Origin: an uncultured Alphaproteobacteria bacterium
Lineage (GTDB): Bacteria > Pseudomonadota > Alphaproteobacteria > Rhodobacterales > Rhodobacteraceae
Direction of reading: 5' to 3'
Length of the DNA: 64,000 nucleotides
Assembly: GCA_963832275.1 (NCBI GenBank)
Contig: CAWHTQ010000019.1
Coordinates: 2,093,337-2,157,336 of the forward strand
Positions 1,639 to 61,371 of this stretch are shown here, in pieces (positions within the stretch are counted from its first letter, which is position 1; every line of letters starts with the position of its first letter). Both the position numbers and the translations under genes were made by a program. The notes below the pieces were generated by a model, which was not told the origin of the DNA, did no database searches, and saw only the letters and a list, made by a program, of their open reading frames with translations.

Positions 1639-2226
1639 AGCGACGCGACCTTTCGTGCGACCTGTTTGAGATGGGCGGCCCGGCTTTCCGGCGTGGACGC
1701 GTCCATCCCGTAATGCATCGCGAACGCCGTCCGGCACCGCCGCGCGCAGACCGAGCGCACCCCGCGCAGCAGCGTCCGCTTGCCCGGCGCGCCCATGAGG
1801 GCCGTGAGCCAGCGTGACGCCCCCCCGGTGGTGAAGACGCCGAGCGTCCGGATATGCGTGAGCCCCGGCGCGATGTTCCCGCCTTCCGGCCCGGGCAGGC
1901 GGAACGCCACGCCGGGCACCAGCACCCGGTCGAGCCACCCCTTGAGCATCGCCGGCAGCCCGTACCACCATGTCGGATAGACGAAGATCAGCGCGTCGCA
2001 CCATTCGAGGTCCGCCACCTCCCGCGCCACCGGCTCCCGGTTCGCCGCCTCGTCGAGGTAGGCGTCCAGCTCCGCCGCGCCGCAGGCACGGCGCGAAACC
2101 CTCCGCGTAGAGGTCGCGCAGCCGCACCTCCGCTCGCTTCGCGGCGAGCCCGTCCGTCACCACGTCCCGCACGGCGGCGGTGAAGCTGTCCGCCTTCGGA
2201 TGGCAGTAGACCACCAGCGCCTTCAC
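1635..2226 (-). pseudogene. NAD(P)H dehydrogenase (quinone)/flavodoxin-like FMN reductase, frame-disrupted
   Basis: N-terminal VKALVVYCHPKADSFTAAVRDVV...DLYAEGFAPCL is in one frame and the C-terminal AREVADLEWCDALIFVYPTWWYGLPAMLKGWLDRV in another. A +1 indel lies near 2030-2090. It is a paralog of the intact downstream copy. May be a sequencing indel. Confidence 0.6.
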
Positions 2227-11078: not shown

Positions 11079-12032
11079 GGGAACCAGCACGCCGCGCGCC
11101 CCCCGTCCGCCGCGAGCGTCGGTCCCGGCTCCGCGCGACATCGGGCCGCCGCCCGCGGGCACCGCGGATGGAACGCGCACCCCTGCGGCAGCGCCCCCAG
11201 CCGCGGCATCGCGCCCGGTATCTGGTGCAGCCGCGCCCGCCCCGCCGAGGCCGCGGGCGTCGCCCCCATCAGCCCCTCGGTATAGGGATGCCTTGGATTC
11301 CCAAGGACTTCGCGCACCGGCCCCAGCTCCGCCAGCCGTCCGGCATACATCACCGCGACCCGGTCGGCCGTCTCCGCGATCACGCCCATGTCATGCGTCA
11401 CCAGCATCACCGCCGTCCCCCGCTCCCGGCAGAGCCGCCGCAGCAGCGCCGTGATCTGCGCCTGCACGCTCACGTCCAGCGCCGTCGTCGGCTCGTCCGC
11501 GATCACCAGATCCGGCTCCGCGCACAGCGCCAGCGCGATCACCACCCGCTGCCGCATTCCGCCGGAGAACTCATGGGGATACGAGCCGATCCTCTCGGCC
11601 GCCGAGGGAATGCCGACCTCCTCCAGCGCCGCCACCGCACGCGCTTCGCGCCTCCGATTGGGACACGTCGAGATGCGTCCGCACCGTCTCCGCGATCTGC
11701 TCGCCGATGGGCAGGAGCGGGTTGAGCGAGGTCAGCGGGTCCTGGAACACCATCCCGATCCGCTTGCCCCGGATGCGCCGCATCGCGGCCGGCGCGGCGT
11801 CGTCGATCCGCTCCCCGTTCAGCAGGACCCGCCCCGACGCGATCCGCGCCGGCGGGTCCAGCAGCCCGATGACCGCGTTCCCCGTCATGGACTTGCCCGC
11901 CCCGGACTCGCCGACGACCCCCAGGATCTCCCCAGGCGCGATGGTCCAGGACACGCCGTCCACCGGTCGGACGATGCCGCCGCGCGTGGGGATCTCGACC
12001 GTCAGGTCCCGCAGCTCGAGGACCGGGATCAT
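11054..12032 (-). pseudogene. dppD: Dipeptide ABC transporter ATP-binding protein, one frameshift
   Basis: N-terminal MIPVLELRDLTVEI...GESGAGKSM... and C-terminal ...FSGGMRQRVVIALAL...ADEPTTALD lie in different frames. A single-base insertion near 11640 (gaggcgcga-agcg-cgtgcgg). ATGA overlap at the start. Confidence 0.75.
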
Positions 12033-31708: not shown

Positions 31709-32845
31709 GGCGCGCAGGTCAGGCCGCCGGCGCCGGCGGGGGCGGGGGGGCATGACGGTGAAGAGCTGCGCCAGCTCCATCACGTCCTCGGCGCGTTGCC
31801 AGCCGTCCTGCCCTGCGGTCCAGACGAGGGTGTCGCGCGTCATCTCGCCCTCGCTCGCCATGCGTCCAAGGCGGGCCTTGGAGAAGGGTCCCCGCGTCTC
31901 GCCGGCCTCGGCGATGTGCCAGACATGCTCGACCGGCGGGGGCGGGGGCGGCGCGGCCTGCGCCGGGGAGCCGGCGGGCCGCGGCCCCCAGGGGCCCTGG
32001 GACATCTGGTTGGCCATCGCCATGCCCATGCCCATGCCGAGCCCCGCGCCCATGCCGCCGCCGCCGTTCGGGTTGGCCGCCGCCGCGGTCATCGCCTCGG
32101 CGGCCGAGTACTGGGTGAACTTCCCCAGGTCCCCGGCCATCCCCATCGAGGTGCGCTTGTCCAGCGCGGCCTCCACCGCGGGCGGCATCGAGATGTTCTC
32201 GATGTAGAGCTCGGGCAGGGACAGGCCGTATTCGGCGATCGTCGCGCTGATCGCGCCGGCGACGAGCTTGCCCATGTCTCCGGTGTTCGCCGCCATGTCG
32301 AGGACGGGAATGCCCGATTGCGCGACCGCGCGGGAGAACTCCTGCACGATGATGTTGCGGATCTGGTAGGTGATCTCGGCGGTGGTGAACTCGCCGTCGG
32401 TGCCGACGATCTCGCGCAGGAAGAGGGCGGGGTCCGTCACGCGCACGGCATAGGTGCCGAAGGCGCGGATGCGGACGGGGCCGAACTCCGGGTCGCGCAG
32501 GATGACGGGGTTCTTGGTGCCCCATTTCTGGTTCGTGAAGCGGGTCGTGTCGACGAAGTAGATCTCGGATTTGAACGGGCTGCGGAAGCCGTGGTCCCAG
32601 TGCTGCAGCGTCGTCATGATCGGCATGTTGTTGGTCTCGAGCATGTAGAGACCGGGGGTGAACACGTCTGCGAGCTGTCCCTCGTGGACGAAGACGGCGG
32701 CCTGACCCTCGCGGACCGTGAGCTTGGCGCCGTACTTGATCGCGTGCCCCTGCCGCTCGAAACGCCAGACCATCGTGTCGCGGGCGTCGGACGTCCAGTG
32801 GATGACGTCGATGAACTCGCCCTTGAGGAAGTCGAAGATCGGCAT
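31709..32845 (-). CDS. SPFH/Band-7 (Band_7_1-type) protein with C-terminal DUF4339; no stop codon before cyt b561
   Basis: MPIFDFLKGEFIDVIHWTSD...SPFH core...HVWHIAEAGETRGPFSKARLGRMASEGEMTRDTLVWTAGQDGWQRAEDV (DUF4339/GYF-like). The frame runs through a G7/C7 tract (31744-31750) into cyt b561. With one more C it would end ...TVMPPPPPPAPAA-TGA at 31719-31721. Confidence 0.7.
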
Positions 32846-42692: not shown

Positions 42693-43548
42693 GATGCGAT
42701 CACATCACGCCGCGCTCGCGCCCGCCCTGATCGCGAGGCCTGCTGGCCGCCTGCGCCGGCCCAGCGCCCACGCCGGGCGCCTTCGGGGGCTCGCCCTCGA
42801 CGCCGGCCCCCTTCGGCAACGAAAGCGTGTTCACCGGCTCGGGCGTCGGCCTCGACACGCCCGCCGCCCGCGCCCGCCGTGACGCCGAGCTGCGCGGGAC
42901 CGCGGTGCCCGGCGACATCTTCGCGCCCGGCGCGGTCCGGTCGCAGGCGCTGCCCCCGGGGGGGGCGCCGCCGCCCGCGACGGGCGCGCAGCCGCTCCCG
43001 GGCGGCGGACTCGACCCCGGGGTCGTCGCGGCCGTCGAGGGCGCGGTGAACCCCGGCGAGGCCCCGTTCGGCGGGCAGGTGCGAGGCGGCGCCTCGACCT
43101 TCCCGCCGGCGTCGGGGCAGGGGGCGTTCGGTGCGCCGGCACCGGCGCCGGCCAACGCGCCCGGCATCTCGGACGAGCAGGACTTCTCCGCCGTCTCGGG
43201 GCGGCAGACCATCGAATCGGATGCGGCCCGCATCGCCCGCAACCGCGCCGACTACGTCCAGATCCAGCCCGAGGCCCTGCCGGAGCGGCCCGCCGCCTCC
43301 GGTCCGAACGTCGCGGCCTACGCGGTCTCGACCACCAACGCGGTCGGCGAGGCGGTCCACCGCCGCGGCGGCATCTTCGCCAGCTCGCGCTTCGAGCGGG
43401 CCTGCGCCGGTACCGCTCGCCCGACGCGGCGCAAGCCGCCTTCCTCGAGCGGGGCGGGCCGGAGCGTGACCGGCTCGGCATCGACCCAGACGGCGACGGC
43501 TTCGCCTGCGGCTGGGACCCGGCCCCCTTCCGCCGCGCGGCCGGTTGA
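42693..43548 (+). pseudogene. Lipoprotein with Pro/Gly/Ala-rich linker and C-terminal Excalibur Ca-binding domain, two frameshifts
   Basis: ATG with GGAGG RBS. MRSHHAALAPALIA, then (after an inserted a at ~42735) GLLAACAGPAPTPG lipobox, a low-complexity region, and after a second shift (~43398) ...IDPDGDGFACGWDP, the Excalibur DxDxDGxxCE motif. Confidence 0.5.
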
Positions 43549-44219
43549 CGCCCGGACGAACGGGACCGGTCTCGCCCAATCACGGGCCGCGGCGCGGCGG
43601 CGGGCCGGTGGACATGGTCGTCCTGCATTACACGGCGATGTCCGACGCGCCCGCCGCGCTGGCGCGGCTCTGCGATCCGGCGTTCGAGGTCTCGGCCCAC
43701 TGGCTCGTGGACCGGGACGGTCGGCGCACGTCCCTCGTGCCGGAGGACCGCCGTGCCTGGCATGCGGGCGCGGGGCGATGGGGCGACGTCCTCGACGTGA
43801 ATTCCCGGTCCGTCGGGATCGAGCTGGACAACGACGGCGCCGCCCCGTTTCCCGAGGCGCAGATCGACGCCCTGATCGCCTTGCTGCGCGGGGTCCTGAC
43901 GCGCGCATCCGGCGATCCGTCCGGAGCGCGTGCTGGCCCATTCCGACGTGGCGCCCGTCGCGCAAGGTCGATCCGGGCCCGTTGTTCCCCTGGCGCTACC
44001 TGGCCGAGGAGGGCCTGTCGGTATGGCCGGACGCGCCCGGCTCCGGCGCGGCGCTTGGAGGCCAGCCTCACGCGAATCGGCTACGATCCAGACGCGCCCG
44101 CCGCCGATCGGTTGAGGGCGTTCCGCCTGCGGTTCCGCCCCGGCGCGGCCGGCGGCCCGGACGCCGAGGACGCGGCCCGGGCGGCCACGATCGCCGCGCG
44201 CTGGCCCTGCGGCGCTTGA
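43545..44219 (+). pseudogene. ampD: N-acetylmuramoyl-L-alanine amidase (anhydro-MurNAc-peptide amidase-like), three indels within ~150 nt
   Basis: VSPNHGPRRGGGPVDMVVLHYTAM...AHWLVDRDG...RAWHAGAG...SVGIELDN, then ...HSDVAPVA / RKVDPGPLFPW / ...EASLTRIGYDPD in three frames. Inferred events are an inserted g (~43902), a 2-nt deletion in a gcgcgc run (~43955) and an inserted t (~44050). Confidence 0.6.
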
Positions 44220-44239
44220 CCGGCCCCGCGGGGGCGCCT

Positions 44240-44618
44240 ACCGGCGGCCTCGCGCGGATGGCTGGATGACCGCGGCCCGCACGGGTCGAGGAAAGTCCGG
44301 ACTCCATGGAAAGGACGGTGCCGGGTAACGCCCGGCCGGCGAGAGCCGAGGGAAAGCGCCACAGAGAAGAGACCGCCCGCATCCGTGCGGGCAAGGGTGA
44401 AACGGTGGGGTAAGGGCCCACCGCGGACCGGGCGACCGGGACGGCATGGCAAGCCCCACCGGGAGCAACGCCGAATAGGGACCCCGAATCGGCGCTTCCG
44501 GCCGGGGGTCCGGGTTGGCGGCTCGACCGCCCCGGCGACGGGTGCGGCAGATGAATGGTCATCCAGGGCGCTTCGGCGCCCGGACAGAATCCGGCTTACA
44601 GGCCGTCCGCGCGCCATT
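44240..44618 (+). ncRNA. rnpB: RNase P RNA, bacterial type A
   Basis: GAGGAAAGTCCGGACTCC (P4 5' strand), GGTAACGCCCGGC, GGGAAAGCGCCACAGAGAAGAGACCGCC, GGGCAAGGGTGAAACGGTGGGGTAAGGGCCCACC, AGGGA and ACAGAATCCGGCTTAC (P4 3' strand). 5'/3' ends can pair (P1). Boundaries are +/-10 nt. Confidence 0.85.
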
Positions 44619-44695
44619 TCTGTCCCTTCGTTTAAGGTCTCGTTAAACGTCCAGTGGCGTTAGTCGTTGCGAACGGTGACAGCTGGAGGCGCCTC

Positions 44696-45137
44696 ATGAC
44701 CACGACGACACGGCCCGTCCCGCGCGGGATGGCGCCCGCCGCGCCGCCGCAGTTCTCGCTCGCCTTCCTGCGCCGCAGCACCGACGTCGTGCAGCTCCTT
44801 GACGCCCGGGGGCCGAGTGACCTTCACCAACGCCAGGCCGCGCGGCTCGGACGGCGTGGCCACCGGGCCGCGCCCCATATGGGGCGTCGAGCTCTGGGAG
44901 TTCTGGCCGAGCGAGGCGAGGAGCCAGGTGCGCGACGCCGTCGCCCGCGCCGCGCGCGGCCAGTGCGTCCGGTTCCGCGCCGACGCTGCTCGACCCGTCG
45001 GAGGTCATGCGCGAACATGACGTCATGATCACCCCGATCGAGGGGCCCGAGGACGCGCCGACCGCCTTGATGGCGGTCTCACGCGCGGTCGGGCCCGAGG
45101 CACCCGTCCGAGCCGGCCGATCCCGGGGTCGCCGACC
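44696..45137 (+). pseudogene. Hypothetical small protein, possibly PAS-like, split over three frames
   Basis: ATG with GGAGG RBS. Protein-like segments MTTTTRPVPRGMAPAAPPQFSLAFLRRSTDVVQLLDARG / RVTFTNA...WGVELWEFWPSEARSQVRDAVARAARGQCVRFRADAA / [36 protein letters not shown] in successive frames. The family assignment is weak. Confidence 0.3.
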
Positions 45138-45248
45138 TCGGGGTTGACCGCCCGGCCGCTGCGCGTAGAAGGCGCGGACGCGGCCCGTGCGCGCGGCCCC
45201 GGCCGCGCGCGCGCCGCACCTCATCCTAGCCGCAGGAGCCTCCGAGCC

Positions 45249-45416
45249 ATGGCGAAGCCGACGACCATCAAGATCCGCCTGAACTCGACCGCGGGCACCG
45301 GCCATTTCTACGTGACCAAGAAGAACGCCCGCACGATGACCGAGAAGTTCTCGATCCGGAAGTTCGATCCGGTCGCCCGCAAGCATGTCGAGTACAAGGA
45401 AGGCAAGATCAAGTGA
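45249..45416 (+). CDS. rpmG: 50S ribosomal protein L33
   Basis: [55 protein letters not shown], 55 aa. Confidence 0.9.
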
Positions 45417-45505
45417 TCCGCCGGGGCGCGCGCGCGCCCCGCGCTGATCCAGCCTGCCGACCTGCCGCGTCTGAATCCGGTCCCTCCATCGCGGCGTGGG
45501 TCGCC

Positions 45506-46017
45506 ATGACCGACGTCGTGACGATCCGGACGGCCACGCCGCGCGACCTCGCGGCGGTCGATCTGCTGCTCTCGCGCAGCTATCCGCGTCTGCTCGCCGC
45601 CGACTACCCCCCGTCCATCGCTCGTGATGGCCGTGCCGCTGCATCGCGCGCGCGAACCCCGCGCTCCTTCGCTCCGGGACCTATCTCGTGGCGGAGAGCC
45701 CGAACGGCGCCATCGTCGCGGCGGGGGGGTGGACCCGCACGGCCGCCGGGGCCGACGCGGGCATGGCCGATACGGGACATGTCCGCCATCTCGCGACGGA
45801 TCCGGATCACCTGCGCCGGGGTTTCGCCGCCGCCATCCTGTCCCGCGTCATGATCGAGGCGCGCGGCGCGGGTCATGCGCCGTCTGGCGTGCCTCTCCAC
45901 GTTCACGGCCGTCCCGTTCTACACCGCACAGGGCTTCGGGAGGGTCGAGGCGGTGACGATCCCGCTCCGGCGCGGCATCGCGTTCCCCGCCGTCTCGATG
46001 CTAAGGGAGCTGCGCTA
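45506..46017 (+). pseudogene. GNAT-family N-acetyltransferase, two frameshifts
   Basis: MTDVVTIRTATPRDLAAVDLLLSRSYPRLL..., then ...TYLVAESPNGAIVAAGGWTR...RHLATDPDHLRRGFAAAILSRV..., then ...RRLACLSTFTAVPFYTAQGFGRVEAV... in three frames. Confidence 0.5.
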
Positions 46018-46082
46018 GGGCCGGACGCGAGAAGGGCCGGCACGAGGCCGGCCCTTCGGGATCGTCAGATGCCGCGCCGCGG

Positions 46083-46856
46083 TCACTCGCGGTTGCCGAA
46101 GAGCTGCAGCAGGAACATGAACATGTTGATGAAGTTCAGGTACAGCGACAGCGCGCCCATGATCGCGGCCTTGCCGAGCCATTCCTGATCGCCATGCGCG
46201 GCATGCGCGACGTACTCGGTCTTGATGCGCTGCGTGTCGTAGGCGGTGAGGCCCGCGAAGATCAGCACGCCGAGGATCGAGATCGCGAACACCATCGCCG
46301 GCGATTGCAGGAAGATGTTGACGACCATCGCGACCACGAGGCCGATCACGCCCATGATGAGGAACGTGCCCATCGCGGAGAGGTCGCGTCTTCGTCGTGT
46401 AGCCGTAGAGCGAGAGGCCGGCGAAGGCGATCGAGGTGATGAGGAAGATCTGCGCGATCGACGTGCCGGTGAACACGAGGAAGATCGAGCTGATCGACAG
46501 GCCCATCGTCGCGGCGAAGGCGTAGAACGACCAGCTGCGCCGTGGCGGCCGACATCTTGTTGATCATCGCCGACATGCCGAACACGAAGGCCAGCGGGGC
46601 CAGCATCACGACCCAGCGCAGCGGCGAGGTGTAGAGCGCGCACGCCGAGATCGGTCAGGTAGCGGTCGGCGCCGATCTGCGCGGCCGTCGGCACGGTCGT
46701 GACCGCGAGGCCGGCGATCGCCCACGCCGCGGCGAAGGTGATCAGCATGCCCACGGACATCGTGCCGTAGACCTTGTTCATGTGGGCGCGAAGGCCCGTG
46801 TCGATCGCGGCGGTGCGTGTGCCCGCACCAGCGCGGATCGCCTGATAGTCAGCCAT
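46083..46856 (-). pseudogene. Bax-inhibitor-1/YccA-family membrane protein, three frameshifts
   Basis: MADYQAIRAG...MNKVYGTMSVGMLITFAAAWAIAG / ALYTSPLRWVVMLAPLAFVFGMSAMINKMSAATAQ / SFYAFAATMGLSISSIFLVF...GYTTKT / RDLSAMGTFLIMG...LLQLFGNRE. Each junction fits a single-base insertion. Confidence 0.6.
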
Positions 46857-46987
46857 TCATGACCTCCATTCGAAGCGGAACCGCCCGGCCGCCACCACGG
46901 CATCCGGGTCTCCTGGCACGAATATCGGGCCGCGGGACGCGCCTTTCAAGAGAGCAACCGGCGAGCCGGGCGCCCTTTTTCGTGGCC

Positions 46988-47198
46988 TTAGCGGCGGTGC
47001 GGCGACAGGTCCCAGAACGGGCGCGCCGCCTCGCGATCGGCTTGGGCGCGGGTCAGGCCGAGATCGCCGAGCGCGGCGTCGTTCAGCCGCGCGAGGGCGG
47101 CGCGCTCGGCCGCGTGCGCGGGCCATCAGGGACAGCGCGGAGAGCGCGGAGCGCCCGGCGGCGTGGCGATGGGCGCGGGAGAGGGCGGGAGCGAACAT
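46988..47198 (-). pseudogene. DUF1127-domain small protein, one frameshift
   Basis: MFAPALSRAHRHAAGRSALSALSLMA, then in the other frame AHAAERAALARLNDAALGDLGLTRAQADREAARPFW, the DUF1127 L-x-DIGL-x-R...PFW motif. Divergent from a LysR gene, a common arrangement. Confidence 0.5.
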
Positions 47199-47223
47199 GA
47201 TCGGGTCCTTCGGTTCATGATGG

Positions 47224-47262
47224 GTGTTGATCATCTGGGCGCCGATTGCGATATTCATCAAA
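47224..47262 (+). promoter_or_regulatory. Candidate LysR-type operator in the DUF1127/LysR divergent intergenic region
   Basis: TTGCGAT-N23-ATCGCAA perfect 7-bp inverted repeat (ttgcgatattcatcaaacgactaattcgcatcgcaa) within the only AT-rich stretch of the 100-nt spacer. Confidence 0.3.
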
Positions 47263-47298
47263 CGACTAATTCGCATCGCAACCATCAGGTCCTGTGAT

Positions 47299-48179
47299 AT
47301 GTCCCGAACCCTCGACCCGTCCGCCCTGCGCGCCCTCGTCGCCATCGCCGATGCCGGCGGCGTCACGCGGGCCGCGGCCGCCCTGCACCGGACGCAAAGC
47401 GCGGTCTCGATGCAGATCAAACGGTTGGAGGACGCTCTGGGCGCTCGGCTGCTGGATCGCGGCGGGCGCGGGGTCACCCTGACGCCCGCGGGCGAGCAGC
47501 TCCTCGGGTATGCGCGGCGCATCCTCGCCCTCAACGACGAGGCGTGGGACCGCCTGACGCATGAGGCCTACGAGGGGGAGATCACGCTCGGGGTGCCGCA
47601 CGACGTCGTGCAGCCGGCGATCCCCGGCGTGCTGCGCCGCTTCGCCGGGCGATTCCCGCGCATGGAGCTGCGCCTGATCACCGGCAACACGGCCGAGCTG
47701 CGCGTGCGTCATGCCCGCGGCGCGATGGACGTGATCGTCACGACCGAGCGGGCCGTCGGTCCGGGCGGGGAGGTGCTGGCCCGCCACGCCCTGCGCTGGA
47801 CCGGCGCGCCCGGCGGGCGGGCGCATCGCGAGCGGCCCCTGCCCATCGCCTTCGAACGGGACTGCATCTTCCGGCCCGACGTGACGGCGCGGCTGGCCGC
47901 CGCCGGGATCGCCTGGCGCATGGTGACCGATACGAGCAGCTTGCGGACCGTCGAGGCGGTGGTCTGCGCCGATCTGGCGGTGCACGCGGTGCTCGAGGGG
48001 ACGACGATGGGCGGCATGGCGCCGCTGGGCGCGGAGGCCGGGCTGCCGGCGCTGGAGGATTGGTGCATCGGCCTGTACCTCCCGGCGGCGCCGGCGCTCC
48101 GGCGGCGGCGCTCGGTGCCCTGTTGCGCGAGGGCTACGGCGGGGCCGCGATCGTGCCGGCGGCCGTCCAGGCCGCGTGA
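47299..48179 (+). pseudogene. LysR-family transcriptional regulator, frameshift near the 3' end
   Basis: HTH MSRTLDPSALRALVAIADAGGVTRAAAALHRTQSAVSMQIKRLE, then a LysR substrate-binding domain. After ...GLYLPAAPA the natural C-terminus (PAAALGALLREGYGGAAIVPAAVQAA-stop at 48179) is in another frame. Confidence 0.7.
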
Positions 48180-48412
48180 TCGGCTGGGGATCGCCGATCG
48201 GATGGCTCGCGCGGAGGGGGTGTCGGCGGGGACGCGCACAATTCTAATTATCTCGGCCGAGATGCGTTCCAGCACTTGGCGTGTAGCGCGACTGCGCTTA
48301 TCCAGGGGACAGGTCACCGCGATCGAGGAGGCGGATGGCACGTGGCAGCATGCCGGGTGTCGAACGCCGGTCGTATATACTAGTTTGCAGCAATGCTCCC
48401 GGAGGACGTTTC

Positions 48413-48778
48413 ATGAGCGACAGGCACCGTGTCGACATCCATGTCGGCAAGCGCGTGCGGCAGCGCCGCTGGATGATCGGGATGACGCAGCAGCAGCTGG
48501 CCGACCTGGTGGGCATCAAGTTCCAGCAGATCCAGAAGTACGAGACCGGCGCCAACCGTGTCAGCGCCTCGCGGCTCTACGACATCGCCGAGGCGATGGA
48601 CGCGCCGGTCGCCTTCTTCTTCGAGGGGGTGGACGCGCGCCGGGCGCCGACGGGCGGCATCGTCGGGGACCTGCTCGCCGACAAGGAGGCGCTGGCGCTG
48701 GTGCGGTCCTACTACGCGATCCCCGAGAACCAGAGGCGGCAGCTCTTCGAGCTCGCGCGCGTGCTGTCGGCGGCGTGA
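48413..48778 (+). CDS. XRE-family HTH transcriptional regulator
   Basis: MSDRHRVDIHVGKRVRQRRWMIGMTQQQLADLVGIKFQQIQKYETGANRVSASRLYDIAEAM (Cro/C1 HTH). GGAGGA RBS. Preceded by a ~230-nt AT-richer leader. Confidence 0.8.
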   Translation: MSDRHRVDIHVGKRVRQRRWMIGMTQQQLADLVGIKFQQIQKYETGANRVSASRLYDIAEAMDAPVAFFFEGVDARRAPTGGIVGDLLADKEALALVRSYYAIPENQRRQLFELARVLSAA

Positions 48779-49573
48779 CCGCGCCGGATATCGACGAACT
48801 TCAACGGGTTGCGGACGCGCTGGCGGATGCGGCGGCGGCGCAGACGCTGCCGCGATTCCGGCGGCCGATGGCGGCTGAGGACAAGGGCGGGCCGGGCGGC
48901 GGCTTCGATCCGGTGACCGAGGCGGACCGCGCCGCGGAGGCGGCGATGCGGGCCGTGCTCGCGCGGCTGCGGCCCGATGACGGCATCCTGGGCGAGGAGG
49001 AGGGGCGCGGTGCGCGGGACCTCCGGCCTGACCTGGGTGCTCGATCCGATCGACGGGACGCGGGCGTACCTCGCGGGGGCGCCGACCTGGGGCACGCTCA
49101 TCGCCTGCGGGCCGGATGGCGGCGCGCCGATCCTGGGGATCGTCGACCAGCCGTATATCGGGGAGCGGTTCGCGGGCGGGCCGGACGGTGCCACCGATCA
49201 CGCGAGGAACGGACCGTAAGATACTGCGAACGCGGGAGGTCCGCGGGCTGGATGAGGCGATCCTGCTTCGACCTTTCCGGAGGTGGGCACGCCGCAGGAG
49301 GCGGCGGCCTTCGGGCGGGTGGCGGCGCGGGCGCGGCTCACGCGCTACGGGCTTGACTGCTACGGCTACGCGCTGGTCGCGGGCGGCCATGCGGACCTGG
49401 TGATCGAGGCGGGACTGGCGCCCTACGACATCCAGGGGCCGATGGCGGTGGTTCGCGCGGCCGGCGGGATCGTGACCGACTGGGAGGGCGGGCGCGCCGA
49501 ATGCGGGTGGGCGGATCGTCGCCGCCGGATGCGCGGCGGTCCATGCGGCGGCCGTCACGCGGCTGCGTGGTGA
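48775..49573 (+). pseudogene. Inositol-monophosphatase-family protein (HisN-like histidinol-phosphatase), at least 4 frameshifts
   Basis: GTG overlapping the XRE stop (GTGA). ...FDPVTEADRAAEAAMRAVL...GEEEG / LTWVLDPIDGTRAYLAG...WGTLIA / ITRGTDRKILRTREVRGLDEAILL / STFPEVGTPQEAAAFGRVAA...YGYALVAGGHADLVIEAGLAPYDIQGPMAVV in successive frames. Confidence 0.55.
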
Positions 49574-49577
49574 CTGA

Positions 49578-49690
49578 CCGGCGCGGCCGCGTGCACATGA
49601 GGTGGCGTGACGCCCTTTCCGTTCGTCGATGCCGATGCACATTCCATGCACAACCCATGCACCGGCCATGCGCATCGGGTGCGCCGGGGC
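49578..49690. repeat. Intergenic element with tandem CCATGCAC(A)-type units (copy 2)
   Basis: ggcgcggccgcgtgcacatgagg...gatgcacattccatgcacaacccatgcaccggccatgcgcatcgggtgcgcc, between convergent gene ends. Shares GGCGCGGCCG and CCATGCACAACCCATGCAC with the reverse complement of copy 1. Confidence 0.5.
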
Positions 49691-49759
49691 CCCTGGGGCG
49701 GGCCGCAGGCCCGCGGCGCCGGCGGAGCGGCCCGGCAGGGTCGGCGACGACGGCGCCCC

Positions 49760-51050
49760 CTAGCCCGATGCGCGCCGCCCCATGACGTAGACCGCCCGCA
49801 CGGCGCGGTCGTCGCCCATCATGATGGTGGGGAACAGCGCCTCCCAGGCGTCGTCCGCCCGCGCGGCGCGCTGCGCGATGGCGGGGGTGGAGGCGAGGTC
49901 GAGCACGGTCAGATCCGCCTCCAGCCCCGGGGCGATGCGGCCGATCCGGTGCGCCCAGCGCAGGGCGTCGGCGCCGGCGGCGGTGGCGAGCCAGAGGAGC
50001 TGCGCGGGGTGCAGGGCGGTGCCGGCGAGCTGTCCGAGCTCGTAGGCCGCGGCCATGGTGCGGAGCATCGAGAAGGAGGAGCCGCCGCCCGTGTCGGTGG
50101 CGAGCGCGACGGCGGATCCCGTCGGCGCCGCCGGCCCGCGACGTCCAGCACGCCCGAGCCGATGAAGGTGTTCGAGGTCGGGCAGTGGACGATGGCGGCG
50201 CCGCTCCCGGCCAGGCGGGCGCGCTCGCGAGCGGTGAGGTGGATCGCGTGGCCGAAGAGGGCGCCGGGGCCGACCAGGCCGTGCGCCTCGTAGGTGGCGA
50301 GGTAGTCGGGCGCCTCGGGGTGGAGCCGGGCGACCCAGGCGAGCTCGTCGGTCTGCTCGGAGAGGTGCGTCTGCATCGGGCAGGTCGGGGTTGGCGGCCC
50401 AGAGGGCGCCCAGCGACCGCGAGCTGCTCGGGGGTGGAGGTGGGGGTGAAGCGGGGGGTGATCGCGTAGCTCGCCCGGCCGCGCCCGTGCCAGCGCGCGA
50501 TCAGGGCGGCGCTCTCGTCATGGGCGCGGGCGGGCGTGTCGAGGAGGTCGGCGCGGGCGTTCCGGTCCATGCAGGTCTTGCCCGCGACGACGCGCATCCC
50601 GCGCGCGGCGGCGGCCTCGAAGATGGCGTCCACCGAGGCGGGGTGGGAGGTGCAGAACGTGCAGACGGTGGTGGTGCCGTTGCGCCAGCAGGAGGTCGAG
50701 ATAGGTCTCCGCGACCGGCGGCCGCATGGGCGGGATCGCCGAAGCGGGCCTCCTCGGGGAAGGTGTAGCGCTCCAGCCAGTCGATCAGGCGGGCGCCCCA
50801 GGAGGCGACGATGCCCGGTCTGCGGGTAGTGGGCGTGCGCGTCGATCAGGCCGGGCAGGATGAGGGCGGCGCCGTGATCCTCGACCGGGACGGCGGGGTG
50901 GGCGGCGCGCAGGTCGGCCAGCGTGCCGAGCGCGCGGACGTGCCCGTCCGCGATCAGGACGGCGCCGGAGGCGATGGTCATCGCCTCCTCGGGCGGGACG
51001 AGGAACGGATCGGCATGGGTGCGCAGCACCTGTCCGGCGAGGATGAGCAT
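49760..51050 (-). pseudogene. guaD: Guanine deaminase (amidohydrolase), at least 5 frameshifts
   Basis: MLILAGQVLRTHADPFLVPPEEAMTIASGAVLIADG...ILPGLIDAHAHYPQTG / IVASWGARLIDWLERYTFPEEARF / VAETYLDLLL / NGTTTVCTFCTSHPASVDAIF... / ...CPTSNTFIGSG... / C-terminal ...AVYVMGRR. Assembled from at least 5 frame segments. Confidence 0.6.
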
Positions 51051-51191
51051 GGGCGGGGCTCCGAGCGGGGCGTGCGGTCGGTCGGTGGAGGCGGGCGTAG
51101 CGCGGCGCGGCTCGCCCCCGCAAGGCGCGCTTGCGGGGGCGCCGCGGGCACCTATGGTGCCGCGATCGTCGCCGCGACCGGAGGGACGACC

Positions 51192-52572
51192 ATGGCCGAC
51201 ACCGTGGAGGAGACGCGCCCCGCCGAGGTGGAGGACCGGGCGCCCGTCGACATGGGCGCGCTGCGCGAGGCCGCCGGGCGGGGCGACGCGGAGGCGGTGC
51301 AGGCGATCCTGCTGCCGCTGCACCCGGCCGACATCGCCGACGCGCTCGAGCAGATGGGCGAGGCGGACCGCGACCGCATCCTGCCGCTGATGGGGCCGGA
51401 GCTGTCCGGCGAGATGCTGACCGAGGTCGAGGAGGGCCTGCGCGAGGAGATCATCGAGGCGCCTGCCCGATTCGGTGGTGGCGGAGGCGGCGCGCGACCT
51501 GGAGACGGACGACGTCGTCGACCTGATCGAGGACCTCAACCAGGAGACGCGCGAGGTCGTGCTGGGCGCGCTCGACGCCGAGGACCGGATCGCGGTCGAG
51601 GCGGCGCTGAGCTATCCCGAGGACAGCGCCGGGCGCCTGATGCAGCGCGAGGTCACGGCGGTGCCGGAGCATTGGGACCGTGGGCGAGACGATCGACTGG
51701 CTGCGCGCGCATGACGACCTGCCGGAGCAGTTCTACCACATGATCCTGGTCGATCCGGGGATGCGGGCGACGGGCTACGTGACGCTCGGGCGGCTCCTCG
51801 GCTCGCCGCGGGCGACGGCGCTGGACGCGCTGCGCGAGGAGAGCTTCCGCACGATCCCGGTGGGCGCAGGACGTCGAGGAGGTCGCCTACGCGTTCAACC
51901 AGTACCACCTGATCAGCGCGCCGGTGGTGGACGAGGGCGGCCGGGTGATCGGGGTGATCACGATCGACGACGCGATGGCGGTCCTGTCGGACGAGCACGA
52001 GGAGGACCTGCTGCTGCTGGCCGGGGTGGGGGACGAGAGCCTGAACGACCGGACGCTGGCGATCGCGCGGCAGCGGTTCCCGTGGCTGGCGGTGAACCTG
52101 GTGACGGCGATCCTGGCGTCCCTGGTGATCGCGCAGTTCGAGGGGGTGATCGCGGCGGTGACGGCGCTCGCGGTGCTGATGCCGATCGTGGCGAGCATGG
52201 GCGGCAACGCGGGCACGCAGTCGATGACCGTCGCGGTGCGGGCGCTGGCGACCCGCGACCTGACGCGGGCCAACGCGCTCAGGGTGCTGCGGCGGGAGGT
52301 GGTGGCGGGCCTGATCAACGGGGTCGGCGTTCGCGGTGATCATCGGGATCGTGGGGGTGATCTGGTTCGGCTCGCCGCAGCTGGGAATGGTGATCGGGGC
52401 GGCGATGGTGATCAACCTGGCGGTGGCGGGGTTCGCGGGGCTGCTGATCCCGCTGGGGCTGGAGAAGGTCGGGATCGACCCGGCGCTGGCCTCGGGGGCG
52501 TTCGTGACGACGGTGACGGACGTGGTGGGGTTCTTCGCCTTTCTCGGGCTGGCGGCGTGGGTCCTGATCTGA
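51192..52572 (+). pseudogene. mgtE: Magnesium transporter MgtE, four +1 frame switches
   Basis: N-terminal domain, two CBS domains and the TM domain ...MPIVASMGGNAGTQS... are present in order but in frames 0, 1, 2, 0, 1 (start coordinate mod 3). GGAGGGA RBS at the ATG. Confidence 0.65.
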
Positions 52573-53125
52573 AGGCCCGCCTGCGGGCGGAGGCCCTGGC
52601 GCGCCGGGGGGAGGTCCATTCCGCCGGAGCGGTCGGCGGCGGCCTGCGCGGTGCTGGCGGCGGCGCTGGGGCCGGGGGCGGGGCGGGTGCTGGCGGGATA
52701 CGTGCCGATGCGCTCGGAGGTGGACGCCTGCCGGTCGATGGCGGGGTGGGACGGGCCGGTCTGCGTGCCGGTGGTGGTGGGCGCGCGGGCGGGCGCTGGC
52801 GTTCCGGCGCGTGGTCGCCGGGGGCGGCGATGGTGCCGGGAGGCTACGGCACGATGGTGCCGCGAGCGGGCGGAGGAGCTGCGGCCCGAGGTGGTGATCG
52901 TGCCGCTGGTGGCGTTCACGGCGGGTGGCGACCGGCTCGGCTATGGCGGGGGGTTCTACGACCGGACGCTGGCGGGGCTCGCGGCGGAGGCGGTCGGGCC
53001 TGGCCTATGCGGCGCAGCGCGTGGCGGCGATGCCGGTGGAGGCGACGGACGTGGCGCTGGGCGCGGTGGCCACGGAGGAGGGGCTCTGGCGGGGCGGGGG
53101 GCTTGTGCCGGCGGCGCCGGCCTGA
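52557..53125 (+). pseudogene. 5-formyltetrahydrofolate cyclo-ligase, several frameshifts
   Basis: GTG, then GPDLKARLRAEALARRGEV...VLAGYVPMRSEVD...PEVVIVPLVAFTAGGDRLGYGGGFYDRTLAGL...GLAYAAQRVAAMPVEATDVALGAVATEEGL split across three frames. Confidence 0.5.
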
Positions 53126-53134
53126 TTCACCCGG

Positions 53135-53851
53135 ATGATGGACCGAAGGCAGAACACCGGCGCGCTGCGCTTCTCGCTCAAGGGCGCGGGGCTGGAGGCG
53201 ATGCCGTCGGGCGCGCTCCTCTGGCCGGCCGAGGGCATGCTCGTGGTCTCGGACCTGCATCTGGGCAAGTCGGAGCGGATGGCGCGGCGGGGCGGCGCGT
53301 TCCTGCCGCCCTACGAGACGCGCGAGACGCTGGCGCGGCTGGCCGCCGACCTGGAGGCGACGGGGGCGGGCACCGTGCTGTGCCTCGGCGACAGCTTCGA
53401 CGACCTGGAGGCGGCGGAGAACCTGGGCGGGCCGGAGGTCATGGCGCTGGGCGCCCTGATGGCCGGGCGGCGCTGGATCTGGGTCGAGGGGAACCACGAT
53501 CCGGGGCCGCTGCCGTTCGGGGGGGAGGCGGCGGCGGAGGTGCTGGCCGGGCCGCTCGCGTTCCGGCACGTCGCGGCGCCGGGCCCGGCGCGGGGGCCGG
53601 GCGAGGTCTCGGGGCACTGGCATCCGAAGATCGCGGTGGCGGGCGTCTCGCGGCCCTGCTTCCTGATCGACGCGGGGCGCGCGATCCTGCCGGCCTATGG
53701 CGCCTATACGGGCGGGCTGCGGGCGGCGCATCCCGAGCTCGACGGGCGCATGGCCGCGGGGGCGATCGCGGTCCTGACGGCGCCGGGCGGCGGGCGGGCG
53801 GTGGCGGTGCCGCTGCGCGCCGCCGCGCCGCGCCGCCGGCGCGCGGGATGA
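53135..53851 (+). CDS. pdeM: Ligase-associated DNA-damage-response metallophosphoesterase (PdeM/MPE-like)
   Basis: ALLWPAEGMLVVSDLHLGKSERMARRGGAFLPPYETRETLARL...LCLGDSFDD...WVEGNHD, the calcineurin-like motifs in the PdeM arrangement. Appears intact. Confidence 0.7.
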   Translation: MMDRRQNTGALRFSLKGAGLEAMPSGALLWPAEGMLVVSDLHLGKSERMARRGGAFLPPYETRETLARLAADLEATGAGTVLCLGDSFDDLEAAENLGGPEVMALGALMAGRRWIWVEGNHDPGPLPFGGEAAAEVLAGPLAFRHVAAPGPARGPGEVSGHWHPKIAVAGVSRPCFLIDAGRAILPAYGAYTGGLRAAHPELDGRMAAGAIAVLTAPGGGRAVAVPLRAAAPRRRRAG

Positions 53852-54267
53852 GCGCGCCGGATCCGCGCGTCCCCGAGGCGGCGATCCGGGCGAGCTTCGC
53901 CGCGCAGGGGATGATGCGGACGCTGGGCGCGCGGATGGTGACGGTGGGCGGCGGCGCCTGCACGATCGAGGCGCCGATCCGGGCGGAGACGGGGCAGCAG
54001 CACGGCTACGCCCATGCCGGGCTCGCCTTCGCGATCGGGGACAGCGCCGCGGGATATGCCGCGCTCTCGGCGATGGCGGACGGGTCCGAGGTCCTGACGG
54101 TGGAGATGAAGATCAACCTGCTGGCGCCGGCGGCGGGGGAGCGCCTGGTCGCGGCGGGGCGGGTGGTGCGGGCGGGGCGCCGGATCGTGGTGGTGGCGGC
54201 GGAGGTGGTCGCGGAGCCCTCGGGCAAGGCGGTCGCGATCCTGCAGGGGACGATGGTGCCGGCCTAG
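53848..54267 (+). CDS. PaaI/hotdog-fold thioesterase
   Basis: 139 aa ...QQHGYAHAGLAFAIGDSAAGYAA...GRVVRAGRRIVVVAAEV. ATGA overlap with pdeM. Confidence 0.75.
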   Translation: MSAPDPRVPEAAIRASFAAQGMMRTLGARMVTVGGGACTIEAPIRAETGQQHGYAHAGLAFAIGDSAAGYAALSAMADGSEVLTVEMKINLLAPAAGERLVAAGRVVRAGRRIVVVAAEVVAEPSGKAVAILQGTMVPA

Positions 54268-54327
54268 GCGGGAACCCCCGGGGCCGGCCGGCGTTTCCAT
54301 GCGACACACACCAAGAGGAGATCCGAC

Positions 54328-54495
54328 ATGGCGAACCACGATCAGACCGAAGGCAAGGCCAAGGACATCGGCGGCAAGATCAAGGAAGAGGCCGGCGATC
54401 TCACGGGCAACGACAAGATGAAGCACGAAGGCCAGGCCGATCAGGTCGAGGGCAAGGTGCAGAAGGGCGTCGGCGACATGAAGGACAAGAGCTAG
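54328..54495 (+). CDS. CsbD-family general stress protein (55 aa, below the ORF-track cutoff)
   Basis: MANHDQTEGKAKDIGGKIKEEAGDLTGNDKMKHEGQADQVEGKVQKGVGDMKDKS. AAGAGGAG RBS 7 nt upstream. Locally lower GC. Confidence 0.8.
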   Translation: MANHDQTEGKAKDIGGKIKEEAGDLTGNDKMKHEGQADQVEGKVQKGVGDMKDKS

Positions 54496-54612
54496 GCCGC
54501 TTCGCGCCTGCGATTGGATCGGGAATGGAGGGGCTGGCTCGCGCCGGCCCCTTCTTCTGTCTGCCGGCATCCTGACGGCGGATGGACGCGCGTGCCGGAT
54601 GGCGGTCCTGCG

Positions 54613-55152
54613 TCACCATATGTCGGCCCTGTCCAACGCGGGAACGCAGGTCGGTCGTCCGGGTAGGCGGGGCATCGGCGCGTCGGTCAGGGATCGCCCG
54701 ATCCATCCGTGGGGCAGGCTGAGCGGCCGGGGCGCGCGCGCAGGTCGCTCGGTGATCGGCACGAACCCGGCCCGGCCGTAGTAGCCCGGATCGCCGTATG
54801 TGATCGCGATCTCCACCCCTTCGGTGCGCAGAACCGCGAGGGCGTGCGCCAAGATGGCCAGTCCGATCCCGCGCCGCTGGCGCTCGGGCGCCACCGCCAT
54901 GGGCGAGAGCAGGACCACGCTGCGCGGATCGTCCGGATAGCTCAGGCGCGTGAAGACGGCCGCGCCGAGCAGGCGACCGCCGTCCTCGGCGCGGAACACG
55001 CGGATGTCGGCCGGCGGCGTCCGCTCGAGGAGGTCGCGGACGAGGCTGCCGATCAGCGCGCCCTCGTCCGGCCCCTCCGAGGCGGCGAACGCCCGGGCGA
55101 ACAGGTCCTCGATCGCCCGCTCGCGTCCCTCGTATCCGGTCGGCAGTTCCAC
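54613..55152 (-). CDS. GNAT-family N-acetyltransferase
   Basis: ...VFTRLSYPDD...LLSPMAVAPERQRRGIGLAIL...ITYGDPGYYGRAGF (acetyl-CoA-binding R/Q-x-x-G-x-G/A). Start uncertain: GTG 55152, or the ORF-track ATG at 55245 with an Arg/Pro-rich leader. Confidence 0.6.
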   Translation of the reverse strand: MELPTGYEGRERAIEDLFARAFAASEGPDEGALIGSLVRDLLERTPPADIRVFRAEDGGRLLGAAVFTRLSYPDDPRSVVLLSPMAVAPERQRRGIGLAILAHALAVLRTEGVEIAITYGDPGYYGRAGFVPITERPARAPRPLSLPHGWIGRSLTDAPMPRLPGRPTCVPALDRADIW

Positions 55153-55241
55153 GCGCGGTCCCCTCGCCGTCGATTCGAGCCTCGCCGGTGCCGGCGGCGA
55201 TGCGGCGCGCGGTGCTCCTGGCCGGACGGGCCGGCGGCCGT

Positions 55242-57019
55242 TCAAAGCGGCCAGATCAGGGGGATGAGGGCGGAGACGATGATCGCCTGGGTGATGTTGA
55301 GGGGGATGCCGACGCGGAGGTAGTCGGCGAACTTGTAGCCGCCGGGGCCGAAGACGAGCATGTTCGTCTGGTAGCCGATCGGGGTCGCGAAGCAGGCGGA
55401 GGCAGCGATCATCACGGTGACGACGAGGGGGCGGGGGTCCACGCCCAGGGACTCCGCGAGGCCGATGGCGATCGGGGTCATCACCACGGCGACGGCGTTG
55501 TTGGACACCATCTCGGTCAGGGTGGTCGTCAGGAGGTAGACCGCCGCGACCAGGAGGACGGGGGCAGCGTTCCCAGGAACGGCGCGACCGCGTCGGCGAT
55601 CAGGGCGACGGCGCCGGTATGCTCGAGCCCCGCGCCGATCACGAGCATCGCCAGGATGAGGACGAGGAGGCGCCCGTCTATGGCGCCGAACGCCTCGTCG
55701 GCCTCGATGCAGCGGGTGAGGAGGACGAAGGCGACCGCGAGGATCGCCAGGAGCAGGATCGGCGCGACCTCGAGGGCCGAGAGGACGACGATGAAGGCGA
55801 GGGCGGCGACGGCGATGGGCCAGCGGCTGCGCTTGAACGCGCGGGCCGAGGGATGCGCCACGTCGACGAGGCCCATGTCGCTGGCCAGGCGGGCGATGTC
55901 CTCGGGGGCGCCCTCGAGGAGGAGCGTGTCGCCGACGCGCACGACGATGTCGTCGAGCTGCCGGCCGATGTTCTCGGCCCGGCGGTGGACGGCGAGCGGA
56001 TAGACGCCGTAGCGGCGGCGCAGGCGCAGGGAGCCGAGGCTCCGCCCGATCATGCCGGCGCCGGGGGTGATGAGCACCTCGACGGTGGAGGTCTGGACCG
56101 AGGAGAGCCGGTCGACGGCGCGGACCTTGGGGTTCTCGCGCAGGCCGAGGACCTCGGCCATCTCGGTTCGCAGGACGACGCGGTCGCCGATGGCGAGCTC
56201 GACCTCGGCGAGGTTGCGGCGCAGGGACGCGTCGCCGCGCAGCACGTCGACGACGCGGATGCCGTCCCGGCGGAAGAGGTCGGCTTCGAGCACGGGCTGT
56301 CCGGCGAGGTCGGAGCCTTCGGGGATGGCCACCTCGGTGAAGAACTTCATCCGGGAGCGCCCGGTGAGGAGGGCGGCCATGCTCTGCCGCTCGGGCAGGA
56401 GGCGGGGCGCGATCACGCCGACGTAGAACATGCCCCAGGCGACGACGGCGAGGCCGATGGGGGTGATCTCGAAGATGGAGAAGGGCTCGAGCCCGCGGGC
56501 GCGCGCGACGCCGTCCACCAGGAGGTTGGTGGAGGTGCCGATCAGCGTGAGCGTGCCGCCCATGATGGCGGCGTAGCTGAGCGGGATCAGCAGCTTGGAG
56601 GGCGCGCGGCCGAGCTTCTCGGCGAGCTGGACGAAGACGGGGAGCATCACCAGCACGACCGGCGTGTTGTTGACGAAGGCCGAGGCGATCACGACGAATC
56701 CCAGGAGGCCGGCGAGGGCGAGGCGGGGGCGGGTCTCGGCCCGGCGCTCGGCGATGCGGGTGAACCAGCCCAGCGCGCCGGTGCGCACGAGCGCGCCCAT
56801 GACGACGAACATGGCCGCGATGGTCCAGGGCGCGGGGTTGGACAGGACGGCGAGCCCGGTGTCGTAGGGCACGAGGCCGACCGCCAGCATGACCGCCGCG
56901 CCGGCGAGGGCGGTGACGTCGGGGGGGAAGGTCTCGCGCACGAAGAGGACGAACATGACGCCGACGACGGCCATGGCGGCGAACGCCTCGGCGGTGGGGG
57001 AGAGCCCGAGATCGATCAC
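55242..57019 (-). pseudogene. SLC13/DASS-family permease with two internal TrkA-C (RCK_C) domains, one frameshift
   Basis: GTG start VIDLGLSPTAEAFAAMAVVG..., two RCK_C domains (...DLAGQPVLEADLFRRDGIRVVDV... and ...GRSLGSLRLRRRYGVYPLAVHR...). The last ~90 codons (...MVSNNAVAVVMTPIAIGLAESLGVDPRP...IPLIWPL) are in another frame, with the shift near 55530. Confidence 0.7.
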
Positions 57020-57983: not shown

Positions 57984-57990
57984 GGCGCCG

Positions 57991-58803: not shown

Positions 58804-58812
58804 GGCCGCGCC

Positions 58813-61269: not shown

Positions 61270-61371
61270 GCAGCGCAGTCTAGCGCGGGGGCCGCGCGAG
61301 GGCAGGGGGGCGCCGGGCTCACGGACCCTCCGGGCCCGTCGCCCGCCGCCGCGGGACCTGCGGCCCGCCCG

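Follow-up and report, generated by a model that had tools for sequence, protein, structure and literature searches.

Twelve genes in the window, the 64,000-nt stretch of DNA analysed here, carry 39 frameshifts between them (35 are +1 and 4 are -1). All but one lie in an island with a core of 10.26 kb (positions 42,736–52,995), where 11 adjacent genes hold 38 events, 35 +1 and 3 -1. The frame switches are confirmed at this place and far exceed chance: at a uniform rate across the window 7.2 events would be expected in the core, where 38–39 are seen (P ~1e-16). The pattern speaks for a local flaw in the sequence record and for no biological feature. Judged from the sequence, the extra bases are probably errors of the record, arising from a low-quality patch in an error-prone assembly, and would not be part of the organism's DNA, in which the genes are almost certainly intact. 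A preliminary description had reported about 30 switches in 14 genes between 42,693 and 57,019. The island is real and stronger than was claimed, with about 39 switches, but in 12 genes; its dense core, from 42,736, ends at 52,995 and only one event, in the SLC13-type gene, falls in 53.1–57.0 kb. That event is better counted with the window-wide background, which it fits better than the island (Table 1).

The reference was the congener locus L081, which is intact, has the same gene order and is 85–88% identical to the window in nucleotides. Frameshifts were placed by frameshift-aware alignment of the intact L081 proteins with the window DNA, followed by single-base localisation and a repair test. 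Plain DNA alignment of the window with L081 over-called indels as compensating +1/-1 pairs, and protein-to-DNA alignment was used instead. In L081 all 12 affected genes are single open reading frames and all 39 event sites are unbroken, so that every event is specific to the window. The second comparison, with Hasllibacter L001, covers the affected genes that have an orthologue there, and these are likewise unbroken. The alignment to intact orthologues proposed in the preliminary description thus placed each gene against L081, and no indel was found to be common to the window and either L081 or L001. The best relative in a GTDB scan, at 74% amino acid identity (genus level), is good for synteny and too distant for base-level comparison; a metagenome scan matched neither the BI-1 site as it stands nor its version lacking the extra base. 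For the rest of the window, split-domain Pfam checks and a measure of how far the stop codon lies beyond the coding signal served as an internal control.

The repair test, in which 35 bases were deleted and 4 restored, yielded 12 full-length open reading frames of orthologue-like length with no internal stops. After repair, the BI-1 protein is identical to that of L081 at 254 of 256 positions despite its three shifts, and the LysR regulator at 283 of 293. Coding quality is kept in every frame segment of the affected genes and the old frame stays open for 100–1400 nt past each shift. The net change is +3 in ampD, in the 166-aa GNAT gene and in BI-1. The ampD and BI-1 frames are open from start to stop, with scrambled middle segments, and could pass as intact. 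An additional shift at ~47157 in the DUF1127 gene, called at the protein level, was dropped, since DNA alignment and the repair test show that one +1 and the in-frame 6-nt difference explain the gene.

Table 1 Features of the window, with positions of frameshifts relative to its first nucleotide.
Feature	Position	Strand	Frameshifts or state
Core of indel island	42736..52995		38 single-base frameshifts (35 +1, 3 -1)
Lipoprotein-like gene (orthologue 281 aa in L081)	42694..43548	+	+1 42736; -1 (A missing) ~43410
AmpD-like amidase (Amidase_2)	43614..44219	+	+1 43904, 43957, 44055
PAS_4 protein gene	44696..45093	+	+1 44799, 44840, 44842, 44885, 44984
GNAT acetyltransferase, 166 aa	45515..46018	+	+1 45620, 45643, 45875
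BI-1/YccA-family membrane protein	46083..46856	-	+1 46389, 46529, 46640
DUF1127 (YjiS-like) small protein	46988..47198	-	+1 47118; in-frame 6-nt difference
LysR-family regulator	47299..48179	+	-1 ~48095, G-run context
HisN-like inositol-monophosphatase-family gene	48775..49577	+	+1 49002, 49197, 49503; -1 (A missing) ~49267
Guanine deaminase guaD	49760..51050	-	+1 50113, 50128, 50387, 50414, 50683, 50715, 50813
Magnesium transporter mgtE	51192..52572	+	+1 51462, 51674, 51865, 52324
5-Formyltetrahydrofolate cyclo-ligase	52557..53125	+	+1 52621, 52779, 52806, 52863, 52995
SLC13/CitMHS-type transporter	55242..57019	-	single -1 ~55557
Flavodoxin_2 NAD(P)H dehydrogenase, frameshift ~2073	2060..2090	-	+1 by frame arithmetic; HMM 2-47 and 63-195 in different frames
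FAD_binding_4 oxidase, frameshift ~3805	3795..3815	-	+1; HMM 2-84 and 87-132 in different frames
DppD-type ABC ATPase, frameshift ~11640	11625..11665	-	+1; ABC_tran 2-80 and 80-137 in different frames
SPFH gene 3' end, frameshift ~31735	31725..31750	-	-1 in poly-C run
rnpB, RNase P RNA class A	44254..44614	+	intact; full-length model match, 265.9 bits
rpmG, ribosomal protein L33	45249..45416	+	intact; 55/55 identical to L081
XRE-family HTH regulator	48413..48778	+	intact (alignment with L081)
pdeM, 4HBT thioesterase, csbD	53126..54492	+	all intact; clean block, right edge of dense island

Events in the core occur at a density of ~3.7 per kb and are Poisson-uniform (variance/mean 0.83; chi-square p = 0.66, 18 bins). 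The edges are abrupt, with no event in gatA on the left or in pdeM/4HBT/csbD on the right; at the core rate, a lack of any event would have a probability of ~0.002 in gatA and 0.003 in pdeM to csbD. Inside the core, rnpB, rpmG and the XRE gene (895 nt together) are also free of events, an outcome whose joint probability at the core rate is ~0.02, and rnpB differs from L081 by 5 substitutions and 0 indels. The preliminary description had listed gatA, rnpB, rpmG, XRE, pdeM, csbD, ymdB and an Lhr-type helicase as intact, which alignment with L081 and domain checks bear out. An apparent '+2' shift in csbD was rejected, as it is a C-terminal length difference and the CsbD domain is complete. In a second GNAT gene (54616-55245, minus strand) a single frame holds the entire domain. 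A search of the island edges for repeats, tRNAs and mobile-element ends found nothing meaningful. High G+C alone was rejected as a cause, since other stretches of the window at 74–76% G+C have no comparable cluster of frame breaks.

Insertions make up 92% of the core events (+1:-1 = 35:3; sign test P ~4e-8). The junctions quoted in the preliminary description, atcgcg-a-ggcctg (42736), gcgct-t-ggagg (44055) and acgcgc-g-catcc (43904), are correct, and all four steps in mgtE are +1 as it had stated. The 2-nt deletion that it placed in a gcgcgc run was not found; the sole multi-base event is a pair of extra G at 44840/44842 (gccGcGcgg) in the PAS_4 gene. Most inserted bases are not homopolymer extensions and this, with the 35:3 excess of insertions, upholds the earlier view that the pattern is atypical of homopolymer-type read errors. 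Junction contexts are heterogeneous, with no common motif, no slippery sequence and no adjacent in-frame stop. By eye, g[C]g and c[G]c contexts are possibly preferred at the junctions, on which we make no claim.

The frame breaks are not confined to the island. In the other 54 kb there are at least 4 further frameshifts, 3 of them +1 (Table 1); that at the 3' end of the SPFH gene removes the stop codon, and the reading frame continues into the cytochrome b561 gene. These four sites indicate that the record as a whole is error-prone. A comparison of indel density with the 5' 40 kb had been suggested; the core lies ~30-fold above the window background, which is itself not clean.

We propose that a patch of ~10.3 kb (42.7–53.0 kb) was made from data much less accurate than its surroundings. 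Such a patch could be a bridge built from long reads alone, a filled gap, a join between contig ends or a stretch missed by polishing. The consensus would have kept about one spurious single base in every 270 nt, and well-supported consensus would be regained at gatA (left) and pdeM (right), where the error rate drops ~30-fold to the window background. The uniform density and abrupt edges resemble a patch of different provenance. The comparison establishes where each indel lies and of what type it is, the even density, the sharp edges, the unbroken orthologues and the lack of any evolutionary sign of decay; a technical cause, and the step that may have been responsible, are inferred. Indels that fragment genes have been documented in long-read assemblies (PMC12007338). 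Residual ONT and HiFi errors are mostly homopolymer-associated, and those of ONT are deletion-biased (PMC12007338), a profile that the island does not match. The mismatch reduces confidence in any specific platform and not in the artefact as such. Also weighing against this reading are the 92% share of insertions, the shortfall of inserted bases identical to a neighbour (8–11 of 33, ~53% being expected of composition-matched random insertion) and the lack of events in rnpB, rpmG and XRE.

It is unlikely, if less so than any other alternative, that the record suffered corruption, deliberate or accidental, once it had been assembled, through random single-base insertions and few deletions within bounded coordinates, as could happen in mishandling a file or in making a simulation or test set. 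Such an edit would produce the box-car density profile, Poisson-uniform inside and sharp at its edges, made up of almost purely single-base events that have no homopolymer association and no accompanying substitutions; in addition, exact copies of the window GatA and PdeM proteins were absent from the public collections searched. The inserted bases themselves argue the other way. The preliminary description had asked whether they are A/T-biased; they are instead 76–77% G+C, like the local composition (27/35; 22/29 in another count, p = 0.008), which rejects a naive generator drawing bases uniformly. A composition-matched generator would make ~53% of insertions identical to a neighbour, against only 8–11 of 33 (24–33%) observed (p = 0.0008–0.02). 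The frameshifts well outside the range, at least four (2.1, 3.8, 11.6 and 31.7 kb) and three of them +1, are better explained by errors throughout the genome than by a bounded edit, and on their account a poorly polished assembly is favoured over corruption. Among the three causes offered in the preliminary description, these two remain, with poor polishing preferred, and the third, pseudogenisation, is contradicted.

That third cause belongs to a reading in which the indels are real, and which we regard as highly improbable. It would take a very recent local burst of +1 insertions, such as repair of a ~10-kb tract by error-prone synthesis might leave, or else a dispensable block under relaxed selection, to inactivate 11–12 adjacent genes in the sequenced clone. 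The frameshifts are indeed unambiguous in the sequence, one contiguous tract holds them, and their insertion-dominated, non-homopolymer signature matches no platform's textbook error profile. Purifying selection on the broken genes, however, is undiminished: pN/pS is 0.219, against 0.274 for the intact island genes and 0.273 for the flanks. A relative-rate test counted 53 window-unique and 35 L081-unique changes in the broken genes (flanks, 16 and 20), and ~38 junction codons would account for roughly the 53:35 difference, so that there is no real excess of window-specific amino acid changes. No nonsense codons were found in the affected genes. Bacterial gene decay is marked by deletion bias; the island shows neither this nor multi-base deletions or IS insertions, its lesions being single-base and its insertion bias the opposite. 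Together with the lack of indels shared with a relative, these observations contradict a genuine recent pseudogenisation of the block. As neutral changes, 38 independent indels with essentially no substitutions would need an indel-only mutational process, and we know of none of that kind. The tract also includes mgtE and, in the HisN-like gene, a histidinol-phosphatase candidate, whose joint loss should be costly, and the frameshifts scattered over other parts of the window, +1 in three cases, speak against a localised event. The narrower proposition that the sequenced clone physically carries all 38 indels, as a single tract-limited, almost pure +1 burst without substitutions that selection has yet to purge, has a slightly smaller chance still. 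Were the genes expressed despite the shifts, whether by RNA-level deletion editing, transcriptional slippage or programmed ribosomal frameshifting, the preserved coding quality of every frame segment would be explained and nothing else. This is extremely improbable: a single gene holds as many as seven shifts, the sites have neither a motif in common nor a slippery sequence nor a stop in frame close by, and no orthologue conserves any of them; to our knowledge no such recoding system exists in bacteria.

The practical consequences concern the record. Its 12 affected genes would be annotated as pseudogenes or garbled proteins, and AmpD and BI-1 could be deposited as seemingly full-length proteins with scrambled internal segments. 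The frameshifts elsewhere in the window mean that the whole record needs polishing, and the unusual insertion-dominated, non-homopolymer signature is worth tracing to the assembly step responsible. The biological interest is low, these being ordinary genes, housekeeping and accessory, of a Rhodobacteraceae chromosome; were reads to support the bases, the island would be an unprecedented tract-limited insertion burst.

Three known systems come closest. Reductive evolution with accumulation of pseudogenes, as in Mycobacterium leprae and recently host-restricted enterobacteria, also leaves many adjacent genes frameshifted yet recognisable. Genuine decay of this kind spreads through the whole genome, raises dN/dS and combines nonsense mutations, IS insertions and larger deletions with a deletion bias, whereas the island has none of these. 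Programmed +1 ribosomal frameshifting is known from prfB and +1 shifting is widespread in Euplotes; there, as in the island genes, a +1 change of frame is needed for the full protein. At programmed sites a shifty motif, in many cases with a stop in frame, is conserved, and the sites recur in orthologues; the island sites, in contrast, are heterogeneous, lack stops and are absent from orthologues. In the indels of long-read and hybrid assemblies (Kastor, PMC12007338; Homopolish, PMC8011154), as in the island, single-base changes break conserved genes into spurious pseudogenes, are visible only against intact orthologues and occur at a rate that varies along the assembly. Long-read errors are mainly homopolymer-associated and, for ONT, deletion-biased, whereas those of the island are 92% insertions, mostly outside homopolymers and gathered in one sharply bounded 10-kb patch.

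At 72% G+C the window shows long open frames in all six frames of its ORF listing, so that ORF lists alone are uninformative. Coding frames were instead read from a codon-position G+C frame plot and a seven-state segmentation. By this reading most of the window consists of long single-frame genes. From ~42.7 to ~55.6 kb the segmentation returns the coding signal in segments of 85-800 nt that keep to the same strand and change frame, and their stop-to-stop translations are good protein, piece by piece; the BI-1-family protein is split into four pieces and mgtE into five. A 1581-aa plus-strand ORF near the right end was rejected as a shadow frame, with G+C at ~100% in the first position of its codons; the real genes opposite it form a minus-strand block (57994-62715).

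Searches for identical copies of the GatA and PdeM of the window had no hit among recorded proteins. Hasllibacter halocynthiae (Rhodobacteraceae) is the best species representative, with 74% identity to a stitched MgtE query, and its ORFs are colinear with the window from gatA to ymdB. Those with an island counterpart align to it in several pieces, each gene changing frame from piece to piece (3>1>2>3>1 for mgtE). A far closer intact MgtE in a large protein collection is P0001 (94% identical, on a 2.75-Mb contig). Its locus, L081, has the gene order of the window: gatA, a 281-aa lipoprotein-like gene, an AmpD-like amidase, PAS, rpmG, GNAT, BI-1, DUF1127, LysR, XRE, an inositol-phosphatase-family gene, an amidohydrolase, mgtE, 5-FCL, pdeM, 4HBT, csbD, then SLC13, EamA and ymdB, each as one single ORF. 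Since its DNA is 85-88% identical to the window, L081 is a congener and not the same strain. The NCBIfam names of the intact orthologues are guanine deaminase, 5-formyltetrahydrofolate cyclo-ligase, AmpD-like and YccA/BI-1-like; the HisN-like match is just below the cut-off. Synteny breaks at 54500-55245 (L081 13400-18290), where the window has one GNAT gene and the congener has five other genes over ~4.9 kb (a 105-aa ORF, adh_short/DUF4386, an epimerase-like gene, a cNMP-binding gene and a 282-aa ORF). Relative to the window, Hasllibacter carries the SLC13-ymdB segment in inverted orientation.

Plain DNA alignment to L081 over-called compensating gap pairs and was dropped for indel calling; a protein-to-DNA dynamic programme permitting frameshifts was therefore written, and each event was placed at the single-base deletion or addition giving maximal identity to the L081 coding sequence. 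Aligning each gene to its intact orthologue yielded 35 one-base insertions and 4 one-base deletions. Completeness was checked by deleting the 35 bases and restoring the 4, after which all 12 affected genes become single ORFs of orthologue-like length and high identity (254/256 for BI-1, 283/293 for LysR, 431/458 for mgtE, 552/592 for SLC13) with zero internal stops. The frame switches in adjacent genes reported in the preliminary description are thus real, and the repair test puts them at 39 in 12 genes rather than about 30 in 14. The genes it listed as intact are so: rpmG, XRE, pdeM, csbD, ymdB, the Lhr-type helicase and the aligned C-terminal part of gatA contain no frameshift, nor do 4HBT and EamA, and rnpB is full length (265.9 bits) with zero indels against the L081 copy. 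In ampD and BI-1 the wrong frames are stop-free, so that each gene can be read through from its start codon to its own natural stop; both would probably pass as intact in an annotation pipeline, though their middle segments are scrambled.

Coordinates of frameshifts, affected genes and neighbouring features (+1, one extra base; -1, one base missing; inserted bases bracketed, coding strand)
Feature	Position	Strand	Observation
Flavodoxin_2 NAD(P)H dehydrogenase	~2073 (2060-2090)	minus	HMM 2-47 and 63-195 in different frames
FAD_binding_4 oxidase	~3805 (3795-3815)	minus	HMM 2-84 and 87-132 in different frames
DppD-type ABC ATPase (ABC_tran)	~11640 (11625-11665)	minus	HMM 2-80 and 80-137 in different frames
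SPFH/Band-7 gene	32845-31751	minus	own stop missing; apparent -1 in C-run at ~31735 (31725-31750)
SPFH-cytochrome b561 open frame	31160-32845	minus	562 aa
XpaC-like (Halogen_Hydrol) gene	36371-37386	minus	probable frame changes near 36659 and 36910, both -1 by frame arithmetic
Ceramidase-like domain and GatC	40176-41180	plus	no stop between
ampD	43614-44219		three +1, net +3
GNAT166	45515-46018		three +1, net +3
BI-1	46083-46856 (protein 46086-46856)	minus	three +1, net +3: g[C]g at 46640, t[C]g at 46529, g[A]c at 46389
Insertion	50113		G inside CCCC
Insertion	51865		C inside GGGG
Insertion	52324		g[T]c
GNAT gene at synteny break	54616-55245	minus	
Shadow ORF	57982-62727	plus	1581 aa, rejected
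ymdB	57997-58803	minus	opposite shadow ORF
Lhr-core helicase	58816-61269	minus	818 aa; DEAD, Helicase_C, WH_Lhr, DEAD_assoc
447-aa protein	61375-62715	minus	no Pfam match

Thirty-eight events fall within 42,736-52,995, at 3.7 per kb (4.3 per kb of evaluable sequence), where a window-uniform rate predicts 7.2 (P ~1e-16). Counts per ~500-nt bin in this core agree with a Poisson distribution (variance/mean 0.83, chi-square p = 0.66). The density falls off sharply at either edge: gatA on the left (1.48 kb) and pdeM-4HBT-csbD on the right (1.37 kb) have zero events, which at the core rate would happen with probabilities of ~0.002 and ~0.003. The right limit of the dense island thus lies near 53.0 kb; of the originally proposed span of 42693-57019 the left part is dense and the remainder is not. 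The single -1 at ~55,557 in SLC13 fits better with the window background. Mobile elements, repeats and tRNAs were looked for at the island edges and none were found.

That background was assessed by asking whether each strong coding segment reaches the stop codon of its own frame. Few cases were flagged beyond the island, three of which are split domains according to Pfam (~2073, ~3805 and ~11640), each +1 by frame arithmetic with BI-1 as the calibration; of the four confirmed events that lie outside 42693-57019, three are thus +1. SPFH homologues end '...LFTVMPPPPPPPA', an ending that the window has only in the adjacent frame, and the SPFH frame continues into the downstream cytochrome b561 gene. 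The background is ~0.1 frameshift per kb, roughly 30-fold under the core rate and itself high for a finished bacterial genome. The XpaC-like gene apparently extends over three frames, with a Pfam match to its C-terminal piece only. Upstream of the island, a ceramidase-like membrane domain (under the Pfam cut-off) runs into a complete GatC, which could reflect genuine overlap, or else a frameshift or the loss of a stop near 40.85 kb. G+C skew in a 2-kb profile is ~-0.15 at 0-12 kb, near zero at 12-46 kb, +0.06 at 46-48 kb and +0.13 to +0.23 from 48 kb on, independent of gene strand; the profile may mark a replication origin, or some other switch of strand asymmetry, within the window or close to it.

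Core events are strongly biased to insertion, +1 to -1 standing at 35:3 (sign test P ~4e-8, computed on 36:3; removal of one doubtful call leaves the same order of magnitude). A check of the inserted bases for A/T bias had been suggested; 76-77% of them are G+C (22/29 unambiguous by localisation, 27/35 by repair), the same as the local composition, and uniformly random bases are rejected (p = 0.008). Most insertions are not homopolymer extensions. The inserted base equals a neighbour in only 8-11 of 33 cases, against 53% expected for composition-matched and 44% for uniform random bases, and the earlier statement that the pattern is not of homopolymer type is therefore correct. In published profiles, the errors left in long-read assemblies are associated with homopolymers and, for ONT, biased towards deletion (PMC12007338).

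The island is confirmed and refined, and all observations combined make a technical account the simplest. On the sequence evidence, assembly or consensus error is probably its cause. Corruption of the record in silico after assembly would suit the box-car density profile but is unlikely: the frameshifts scattered far outside the range, three of them +1, fit it less well, as do inserted bases matched to local composition. A genuine burst of +1 mutagenesis confined to the tract is conceivable in the strict sense, but calls for an unknown process that makes indels only, and for mgtE and the HisN-like gene to have been lost together.

Genuine recent pseudogenisation, suggested initially, is rejected. 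Bacterial gene decay is deletion-biased, and substitutions build up alongside indels. Here pN/pS (repaired codons against L081) is 0.219 in frameshifted genes, 0.274 in intact island genes and 0.273 in the flanks, and is thus not raised. With Hasllibacter as outgroup, amino-acid changes unique to the window and to L081 stand at 53:35 in the island and 16:20 in the flanks; the island excess of 18 is close to the number expected if the aligner mis-scores ~38 junction codons. Frameshift-aware alignment and the repair test found no nonsense codons in the affected genes, and island genes have no multi-base deletions except ordinary in-frame differences. Decay does not account for 38 indels that favour insertion 12:1 and come with practically no substitutions. 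Recoding of the shifted genes has no support.

We propose that the record comes from an error-prone assembly in which 42.7-53.0 kb would be a patch of markedly lower consensus accuracy; the biological interest of the island is low. Guesses for the source step include bridging by long reads, gap filling and a consensus made in homopolymer-compressed space. The error profile is not the usual one of ONT, HiFi, 454 or Ion Torrent.
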